Positions 605-8,281 of a DNA stretch of 10,341 nt are shown piece by piece. How positions within the stretch are numbered: the first letter of the stretch is position 1; each line of letters begins with the position of its first letter. This stretch comes from Kofleriaceae bacterium (lineage in GTDB: Bacteria; Myxococcota_A; Polyangia; Haliangiales; Haliangiaceae): positions 1 to 10,341 of the forward strand of contig JBKJLC010000280.1 in the NCBI GenBank assembly GCA_046597055.1, in the 5' to 3' direction. The notes under the pieces were generated by a model. It did no database searches and was not told the origin of the DNA. It was given only the letters and a program-made list of their open reading frames with translations. Both the position numbers and the translations under genes were made by a program.

Positions 605-632
605 GCTGTCCGGTCTCCGGACAGCTGTCCGG
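605..632. promoter_or_regulatory. Candidate upstream activator (enhancer) site for a sigma-54 enhancer-binding protein
   Basis: GCTGTCCGG-tct-CCGGACAGC (605-625) is a perfect 9-bp-arm inverted repeat containing TGT-N11-ACA. It overlaps the perfect 16-bp palindrome CCGGACAGCTGTCCGG (617-632) and lies ~90-115 bp upstream of the predicted sigma-54 start site. Confidence 0.6.
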
Positions 633-692
633 CCGGCGGACGCCGGTGGCCGGGACCCGGACGGCGTCGACGCCGATCCGCGGGCTTGCGCG

Positions 693-708
693 CGGCACGC
701 GGCTTGCG
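693..708 (+). promoter_or_regulatory. Sigma-54 (RpoN) -24/-12 promoter
   Basis: CGGCACG-CGGC-TTGCG matches the TGGCACG-N4-TTGC consensus with exact GG-N10-GC spacing (GG 694-695, GC 706-707). The predicted +1 near 719 falls just before the SD AAAGGAG (726-732) and ATG 742. Confidence 0.75.
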
Positions 709-741
709 ATGGGTCTGCTCACTCGAAAGGAGCGAGCTCAG

Positions 742-1041
742 ATGAACGCAAGCAATGTCGGAACTGTCAGTGGCAATCGACCCAAGATGTTCAAGGTGCT
801 GTGTCCGGTGGAACGCAAGGATGGAGGGACCTTCTGGATGCGGGTGGGATCGGCGTTCCCCAACAAGGACCAGTCGATCAACCTCTATCTCGACGCGCTG
901 CCGCTCGGTCACAACAAGCTGCAGATCCGGGAGATGGAGGACGAGGACTTCAATCGCGGGGGCAAGAAGCGCGATGGCGAGGCGCCGCCGAGCGCGAGCG
1001 CGGGGGCCGGCCCCGGCGGCACCGACGACCTCCCGTTCTGA
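742..1041 (+). CDS. Small (99 aa) hypothetical protein, putative single-stranded DNA-binding protein with SSB-like acidic C-terminal tip
   Basis: Strong SD AAAGGAG at 726-732 before ATG 742; the ORF-track extension from 166 is low-complexity and crosses the promoter. Beta-rich core FKVLCPVERKDGGTFWMRVGSAFPNKDQSINLYLDALP, then a Gly/Ala/Pro linker, ending DDLPF. The CDS is well supported; the function is inferred. Confidence 0.85.
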   Translation: MNASNVGTVSGNRPKMFKVLCPVERKDGGTFWMRVGSAFPNKDQSINLYLDALPLGHNKLQIREMEDEDFNRGGKKRDGEAPPSASAGAGPGGTDDLPF

Positions 1042-1086
1042 CCGGACCCTGGAACCAGCAAGGAACTGACGATGAAGGAGCGTGTC

Positions 1087-1521
1087 ATGGAGACAGGTGA
1101 GAGCGTGCAGAGTGGCAAGGGCGCGGCGCGGTGGCGGCGGGCGATGGCGTCGGCGGCGATGGCGGCCATGGTGGCGATGGCCGGGGTGACCTGGCTGTCG
1201 CCGCAGGTCGCGGCGGCGGCACCCAGGGCGCTGCCCGGGGTGGTGGCGACGCGGAGCACGGCCGAGCCACCGGCGGCGCGGGCGGGCAAGAAGGAGGTGG
1301 CCGGCAAGCTCAACCTCAACACGGCGACCGCCGATCAGCTGATGTTGCTGCCGGGGGTGGGCCCGTCGAAGGCGGAGCGGGTGGTGGCGTGGCGCGGGAA
1401 GCACGGGCCGTTCAAGCGGACCGCTGACCTGCGCAAGGTGAAGGGGTTCGGCTACAAGACACTCAAGAAGCTCGAGCCGTACCTGGACGTGAAGGGCGAC
1501 TCGACCCTGGCGGCCCGGTAG
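1087..1521 (+). CDS. comEA: ComEA-family helix-hairpin-helix DNA-binding/uptake protein (exported)
   Basis: C-terminal LNLNTATADQLMLLPGVGPSKAERVVAWR..GPFK..DLRKVKGFG is the tandem HhH of ComEA. The N-terminus is signal-peptide-like (RWRR, hydrophobic stretch, VAAAA). SD AAGGAG at 1075-1080 precedes ATG 1087; ATG 1072 is an alternative start. Confidence 0.88.
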   Translation: METGESVQSGKGAARWRRAMASAAMAAMVAMAGVTWLSPQVAAAAPRALPGVVATRSTAEPPAARAGKKEVAGKLNLNTATADQLMLLPGVGPSKAERVVAWRGKHGPFKRTADLRKVKGFGYKTLKKLEPYLDVKGDSTLAAR

Positions 1522-7723: not shown

Positions 7724-8281
7724 CTATCGCCAGCGCGCGCGCAGGCGGCACGCGTCGGAGCCCTCGAGCCGGCAGCTGTGCGTCTCGGTGTGCACGTCCT
7801 GTCCGCCCGACAGCTCGCACGAGCGCTCGGCCCAGCCCTGCACCGACTGGCAGTGCACGCAGCTCGGGGTCGGGAAGCCCTCGATGGTCAGCTCGATCTC
7901 GCCCGACGCCAGCTCGCGCAGCGACAGCTGGCCGGCGTCGTAGTGCAGGTGCCACAGCCGCGCGGCCCGGGCCATGACCCACTTCACGGTGCCGACCTTG
8001 TAGAACAGCCGGTAGATCGTGGTCATGTTGGCCTCGGCGCCCACGCGGCCGAGCACCTTGATGAGCGCGCCGTCGCCCTGCCCGAACAGCAGGTCGATCG
8101 CCGTGCTCAGCTCGACGAACTCGACGAACGGGTACCAGGTCGCGACCGCCACGCCGTCGCGGATCGCGCCGGCGAGCCCGGGTGATACCGCTTCACACAG
8201 CCGCTCGATCCCGTCCTGTCCGTGGTTGAGGCGGACCCAGGTCACGCGGGACGCGAGGGCGCTTCCCTTGACGTTCGCCAC
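7724..8281 (-). CDS. Myxobacterial DUF2378/TIGR02265-like protein (V4R/HNOB-like ligand-binding fold inferred), 185 aa
   Basis: N-terminal VKG, a WYP motif, [21 protein letters not shown] and a C-terminal C-x7-C-x5-W pattern. Coding-like codon usage. Family assignment is from recognition only. Confidence 0.7.

Follow-up and report, generated by a model that had tools for sequence, protein, structure and literature searches.

We analysed a 10,341-nucleotide stretch of a Kofleriaceae bacterium genome (contig JBKJLC010000280.1 of assembly GCA_046597055.1; hereafter the window), in which a short gene directly before comEA encodes P0001, probably a dimeric protein that binds single-stranded DNA (ssDNA) and acts in the manner of SsbB, within a competence regulon not described before. 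P0001 likely coats incoming DNA, because it carries a tail like that of the bacterial ssDNA-binding protein SSB and its gene occupies this position across myxobacteria. From the evidence below we infer that P0001 binds DNA, forms dimers and docks partner proteins, and that its gene is co-regulated with others. The ssDNA-binding reading is drawn from the occurrence of the family in three ssDNA-producing settings, its basic and aromatic core and its SSB-type tip, and the competence role from the chromosomal position and the promoter.

A comEA-like gene begins 30 bp downstream of the P0001 gene, and the two likely form one operon. Where at least 1 kb of sequence was available, a same-strand comEA was found within 1.2 kb downstream in 72 of 76 loci of a first locus set (the best 80 of 90 matches) and in 28 of 28 loci of a phylum-sample set (the best 30 matches, leaving out extra paralogues and weak phylum-level matches), with some genomes present in both. 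Exceptions include a Patescibacteria member and a viral member, both without the tail. At loci L092–L113, from other Myxococcia families, comEA is present wherever there is enough sequence, and 21 of these 22 members do not end in PF. On one contig (L055 and L058) the unit occurs twice, ~7 kb apart and with identical protein ends, as a duplication or an assembly artefact.

The organism's genome also encodes comEC, two dprA genes, comM, radC, rpoN, a comF-like gene below the cut-off and three recA matches, one of them a fragment, together with a separate canonical SSB ending in DDDIPF. P0001 thereby shows a trait of competence-specific SSBs, linkage to competence genes alongside a separate housekeeping SSB. 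A link to incoming DNA, proposed in an earlier sequence-only reading of the window, is backed by the comEA linkage and by upstream motifs common to comM, radC and one recA. In two genomes (G247:C66 and G287:C2), a P0001-type gene and a canonical ssb lie ~3 kb apart on opposite strands.

The gene itself is a real, expressed-looking open reading frame (ORF), single-copy in its genome. Its translation gives a protein of 99 amino acids (aa) that includes FWMRVGSAFPNKDQSINLYLDALP and terminates in GGTDDLPF. The AlphaFold model contains strands at residues 17–24, 30–40, 46–50 and 61–64 and one short helix at 67–74; block values of the predicted local distance difference test (pLDDT) are 83–94 across residues 11–70 and 55–61 in the final 29 residues. 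Translation and model together confirm what the sequence-only reading had described, namely a 99-aa protein with a core containing FWMRVGSAFPNKDQSINLYLDALP, a linker and a TDDLPF end. The full-length protein has a net charge of 0, and the mean core charge over 150 family sequences is +3. In these sequences, the aromatic positions W32 (92%), F/Y39 (92%) and Y49 (76%) and the basic positions K18 (89%), R34 (77%) and R63 (96%) are conserved. Within the conserved core of the family, residues 15–65, conservation reaches at least 90% at W32, G36, N41, D43, S45, N47, P54 and R63. Natural head-to-tail duplications occur in 11 proteins, one of which was modelled as eight strands (pLDDT 81, predicted template modelling score 0.69). 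Several tandem-duplicated members (P0075, P0203–P0206, P0208, P0211 and P0215) continue at the C terminus into a fused segment that resembles a zinc ribbon (CxxC...CxxC).

By sequence comparison, P0001 belongs to an unnamed family. It matched no Pfam family at E ≤ 1, and no Pfam family matched more than two of the 150 members at E ≤ 0.1; NCBIfam and PDB sequences gave no real match, and the family profile found no PDB sequence at E ≤ 10. The SSB OB domain (PF00436) was matched neither by P0001 nor by any of the 150 members, whereas the same model recovers the true SSB of this genome at E 4e-41, and hhalign gave a probability of 2–3% for the family against 10 myxobacterial SSBs. The idea that the core is not that of a canonical SSB is thus borne out at the level of sequence, and the Pfam search gave no confident match to a family of unrelated function. 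No PC4, YdbC, Whirly or Pur family of Pfam was matched among the 150 members at E ≤ 0.1, in line with the lack of PDB sequence matches to the family profile at E ≤ 10. A match to the PC4/YdbC/Pur-alpha fold was at noise level, the helix is missing in the tandem model, and no PC4-like chain is among the fold matches listed for the latter. The fold is tentatively predicted to differ from those of known ssDNA binders.

The family profile retrieved 1,688 representatives at E ≤ 0.001 (clusters at 50% identity). In a sample of 401 genomes from the phylum it matched 73, of which 64 belong to the organism's own class and 9 do not. Homologues carry the names Kofleriaceae or Myxococcales, which makes a Haliangiales-type myxobacterium very likely as the host. 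The uncharacterised phage family phrog_18187 is weakly matched by 41 of 52 close members (best E 1e-4). In the ESM Atlas the neighbours are phage and Myxococcota clusters without names; among named clusters, DUF736 comes closest (0.78). The DUF736 profile (PF05284) matched neither P0001 nor any of the 150 members, and hhalign against two DUF736 proteins gave 7.6% and 0.2% (shallow template), with a GAAW...KLD-like stretch in common. A DUF736 identity is thus not borne out by direct comparison; a remote kinship may exist. DUF736 is present on all Mesorhizobium integrative and conjugative elements (ICEs) and plasmid elements described in PMC8627217. Two genomes (G152:C8 and G257:C1) hold four additional family copies inside ~15 kb, possibly on a mobile element. 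A literature search, with all supplements and most subscription papers outside its scope, returned no description of the P0001 family or of a myxobacterial sigma-54 competence regulon; supplementary tables of M. xanthus proteomics or activator targets could already hold data on the orthologue.

The C-terminal tip is more than a chance feature: among the genome's 51,579 stop-terminated frames with a length of 80 aa or more, 28 end in PF, and only two, the canonical SSB and P0001, end in [DE][DE][ILV]PF. P0001 has both a disordered linker and an acidic DDxPF tip; its family has them only in part. All 52 close homologues end in PF, with DxPF in 36, DDxPF in 10 and linkers of varying length; of 149 distant representatives, 112 end in PF, 33 in DxPF and 10 in DDxPF (the search profile contained the tail, which favours tailed matches). 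Closed ORFs end in PF in 65 of 79 cases in the first locus set and in 7 of 29 in the phylum-sample set. The conserved part of the tip is hence the terminal PF and not the acids, judging from these counts. Of the DxPF pattern, whose conservation the sequence-only reading had proposed to check, close homologues keep the final PF and not the acid, and the tail is absent in most other Myxococcia and in the plasmid members. The last nine residues hold on average 1.3 acids in tipped family members; for 28 canonical SSBs sampled from the same bacterial family, 24 of them with a DDDIPF end, the average is 2.9. As the tail is lineage-limited, the sequences indicate that the terminal PF is under selection in Haliangiales-type members and is not the core function of the family.

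This bears on an alternative that we judge to have only a slim chance, in which P0001 serves as an adaptor or decoy without coating DNA: its core would oligomerise or bind protein, and its tip would recruit or titrate enzymes that bind SSB tails, such as exonucleases. The invariant PF end of the close homologues and the zero net charge of the full-length protein agree with it, and DDDIPF-tipped phage proteins have been proposed to engage host enzymes (PMC13687109 and bioRxiv 10.64898/2026.04.29.721553). Against this, conservation is far stronger in the basic and aromatic core than in the tip, and tail-less members keep the comEA linkage; a pure SSB-tail mimic, one option of the sequence-only reading, therefore cannot be the core function.

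A further line of evidence lies upstream of the gene. An unbiased palindrome count in upstream regions returned GTCCG-N5-CGGAC, whose exact core is present in 53 of 111 regions (shuffled mean 0.28), often in tandem at 18–22 bp spacing, with three copies in the window; none was found upstream at loci L092–L113. Genome-wide, YGTCCG-N5-CGGACR occurs 310 times, compared with 0–34 occurrences at other spacings. Downstream of the boxes, at peak distances of 39, 50 and 70 bp, lies a motif matching GG-N10-GC, which we take to be the –24/–12 consensus of sigma-54. Of 86 and 22 upstream regions, 57 and 11 carry its strict form (shuffles 0.9 and 0.3; opposite strand 0) and 65 and 21 its loose form. Given that assumed consensus, a motif that is conserved, on the right strand and in a genome with rpoN is consistent with a sigma-54 promoter.

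The genome contains 14 tandem-box clusters, four of them at the P0001 gene, comM, radC and one recA. Among 30 Kofleriaceae genomes, allowing at most one mismatch, the box was present upstream of comM in 21 of 29 cases and of radC in 18 of 28; for dprA and ssb the counts were 1 of 30 and 0 of 28, and in-gene controls gave 1–2. The strict sigma-54 motif precedes comM in 15 of 29 cases, mostly at –57/–58, and radC in only 4 of 28; for comF, box and motif were each found in 1 of 23. Kofleriaceae recA genes fall into two types (L208/L230 versus L207; L353–L377), only one of which has box and motif: the C26 type carries the box in 10 of 12 cases and the motif in 7 of 12, and the C222 type neither in 13 (three partial loci skipped). 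In several genomes, the box-bearing recA is within ~10 kb of comM. Elsewhere, five near-identical boxes of the form TGTCCGGATC(T/C)CGGACA stand at irregular spacing (G000:C239:53497-53781).

The same gene set leaves room for P0001 to bind ssDNA outside transformation, in a DNA-damage programme or one of DNA scavenging in which prey DNA is taken up to feed the cell or to template repair; we consider this unlikely. Such a programme is compatible with recA, comM and radC, all of which could equally act in repair, with the lack of a box at dprA, comF and comEC, and with some tandem boxes just downstream of polA and uvrA. It is opposed by comEA being the tightest link and by the other recA and ssb lacking the motifs; ComE, competence and RadC also go unmentioned in the main text of the DdiA paper.

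Several observations weigh against a tip-bearing ssDNA binder under a dedicated regulator. The PF end occurs at just 1 of the 22 loci of other Myxococcia families and in 0 of 6 plasmid or ICE relatives, and the tips of the family are less acidic than those of SSB. Of the 310 box sites, 178 lie inside crudely called ORFs and only 13 are near a strict promoter motif (4%, compared with 0.8% at random), while ten of the tandem-box clusters adjoin other genes. The gene sets of the box survey were picked after the pattern in this genome had been seen, and related genomes are not independent. The box may also be bound by a global or nucleoid factor, as six copies (L229:2013-2200; G000:C39, ~44900-45100) cluster beside a low-coding stretch that is possibly a replication origin, with 9-mers resembling what we take to be the DnaA-box consensus.

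Relatives on mobile elements supply the other two ssDNA-producing settings. A Myxococcus plasmid relative is flanked by a replication-relaxation gene on one side and a gene with a TraM domain on the other (core profile E 2e-16), a phage relative follows an antirestriction gene (E 7e-13), and further plasmid relatives are near MobQ or MobA relaxase genes; relaxase or coupling-protein genes are nearby in three records, and two rhizobial relatives adjoin only a methyltransferase gene and parA. In phage P19250A, a relative with a DLPF end is preceded by an Erf annealase and an exonuclease, a place often filled by a phage SSB. The clade of this relative, which ends in PF, reaches an hhalign probability of 96% against the P0001 family, but only E 0.008 with the core profile. 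In a set of 80 close viral loci, which form one clade and count as a single observation, the exonuclease is directly upstream in 76 of 76; Erf, wherever the sequence reached far enough, is also upstream (68 of 68). These loci contain no match to canonical SSB. Mobile elements were probably the source from which the family was recruited. Two phage annotations met in this survey stand out: a diguanylate cyclase/phosphodiesterase (L117:3298-3954, KX815270) matches phage exonuclease families and is likely misannotated, and a protein annotated as SSB (L198:3501-3938, MW202512) combines an N-terminal core of similar appearance with a Q-rich linker and a DDDIPF that is internal, 36 more residues coming after it, perhaps through a frameshift; its core-profile membership is not significant.

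These phage neighbourhoods invite the proposal that P0001 anneals strands or mediates recombination in the way of DdrB or lambda Orf, and is not a passive coat. DdrB, an ssDNA binder with annealing activity, is used in transformation (PMC7314969), and the phage relatives are grouped with Erf and an exonuclease. We find the proposal improbable: the phages in question already have an annealase in Erf and the host has DprA, and neither DdrB nor Orf is listed among the results of the Pfam, PDB-sequence or fold searches, no direct pairwise comparison with DdrB having been made. Least probable of all is a function unrelated to ssDNA, such as RNA binding or comEA regulation, with PF as a generic C-terminal motif. 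Although there is no known family or fold match and the tip acids are poorly conserved, uptake, conjugation and phage recombination are three separate contexts that all involve ssDNA, and the full tip is nearly unique to P0001 and SSB in the genome.

For a competence ssDNA binder, the following course can be proposed. A sigma-54 activator or another box-bound factor would switch on the P0001–comEA operon together with comM, radC and the second recA, and ComEA and ComEC would import one DNA strand. Two four-stranded cores would pair into an eight-stranded β unit, whose conserved aromatic and basic residues would bind and protect the imported strand. The Haliangiales-type tip would dock on partner enzymes in the pockets that take up the SSB tail, probably with lower affinity than SSB itself, and the PF tip would likely serve to hand the incoming DNA to the recombination enzymes of the cell. 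In other Myxococcia, the core would function without the tip, comparable to the protection given by pneumococcal SsbB without its last seven residues.

SsbB is an OB-fold paralogue of SSB, and DdrB has a pentameric, non-OB fold. PMC3128108 reports that pneumococcal SsbB protects internalised ssDNA and that this reservoir function survives loss of the last seven residues; SsbB of Streptococcus pneumoniae and Bacillus subtilis thus resembles P0001 as a second, competence-tied SSB-like protein beside the essential one, with a partly dispensable tail. In our analysis, P0001 differs in its lack of an SSB sequence match, a core about half the size, a predicted sigma-54 promoter and an ssDNA-binding activity that is so far putative. 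Deinococcus DdrB, which is damage-induced and anneals strands, offers a parallel as a lineage-specific alternative ssDNA-binding protein (presumptively so for P0001) with a role in transformation (PMC7314969); P0001 differs in having no listed sequence or fold match to it. With canonical SSB, P0001 has in common the disordered linker and acidic ...PF tip, whereas its core is unrelated by Pfam and hhalign. The phage DUF669 protein Gp63 and Bas52_0087 are likewise non-canonical and SSB-like, from families with DDDIPF tips and recombination contexts; unlike P0001, they are described as OB-fold by prediction (PMC13687109 and bioRxiv 10.64898/2026.04.29.721553) and are much larger, with no comEA link.

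The features of the window are collected in Table 1. The remaining genes (M20 peptidase, kinase, beta-lactamase family, Hsp33, LytTR and carboxyltransferase) look unrelated to P0001. Between the LytTR gene and the carboxyltransferase gene, a 185-aa ORF (7724–8281, – strand) has only a faint V4R match.

Table 1 Coordinates of P0001, its tip, the adjoining comEA-like gene and the predicted upstream sites in the window
Feature	Position	Strand	Basis and remarks
P0001, 99-aa protein	742..1041	+	Translation; four-strand core (~residues 15–65), short acidic helix, variable linker, DDLPF tip
SSB-Ct-like tip DDLPF	1024..1038	+	Translation, homologue comparison
Shine-Dalgarno-like AAAGGAG	726..732	+	Sequence; 9 nt ahead of ATG
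Palindromic box 1, TGTCCG-N5-CGGACA, predicted regulator site	607..623		Palindrome count
Palindromic box 2, TGTCCG-N5-CGGACG	626..642		19 bp after box 1
Palindromic box 3, with a single mismatch	648..662		21 bp after box 2
Predicted sigma-54 –24/–12 promoter motif GGCAC-N6-TGC	694..707	+	Motif scan with assumed consensus
comEA-like gene, hydrophobic N-terminal leader and HHH_3 domain	1072..1521	+	PF12836, E 7e-20, above cut-off

A broader proposal, which we advance tentatively, is that the family constitutes a new structural class of ssDNA-binding proteins: a 50-residue four-strand unit, eight-stranded β as a dimer, that would act as the SSB of phages and conjugative elements, would have been domesticated in myxobacteria as the first gene of a sigma-54 competence regulon (comEA, comM, radC and a dedicated recA), and would have gained an SSB-type tip in some lineages. 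If P0001 binds ssDNA, it would extend the few known SSB architectures by one fold, put a name to a family that numbers 1,688 or more clusters (50% identity) across myxobacteria, plasmids and phages, and present the tip as a portable module set on an unrelated core. The common promoter features would provide testable handles on the myxobacterial DNA-uptake switch, in the form of a candidate sigma factor, an operator sequence and a gene list, and may also offer a reason for the second recA copy.
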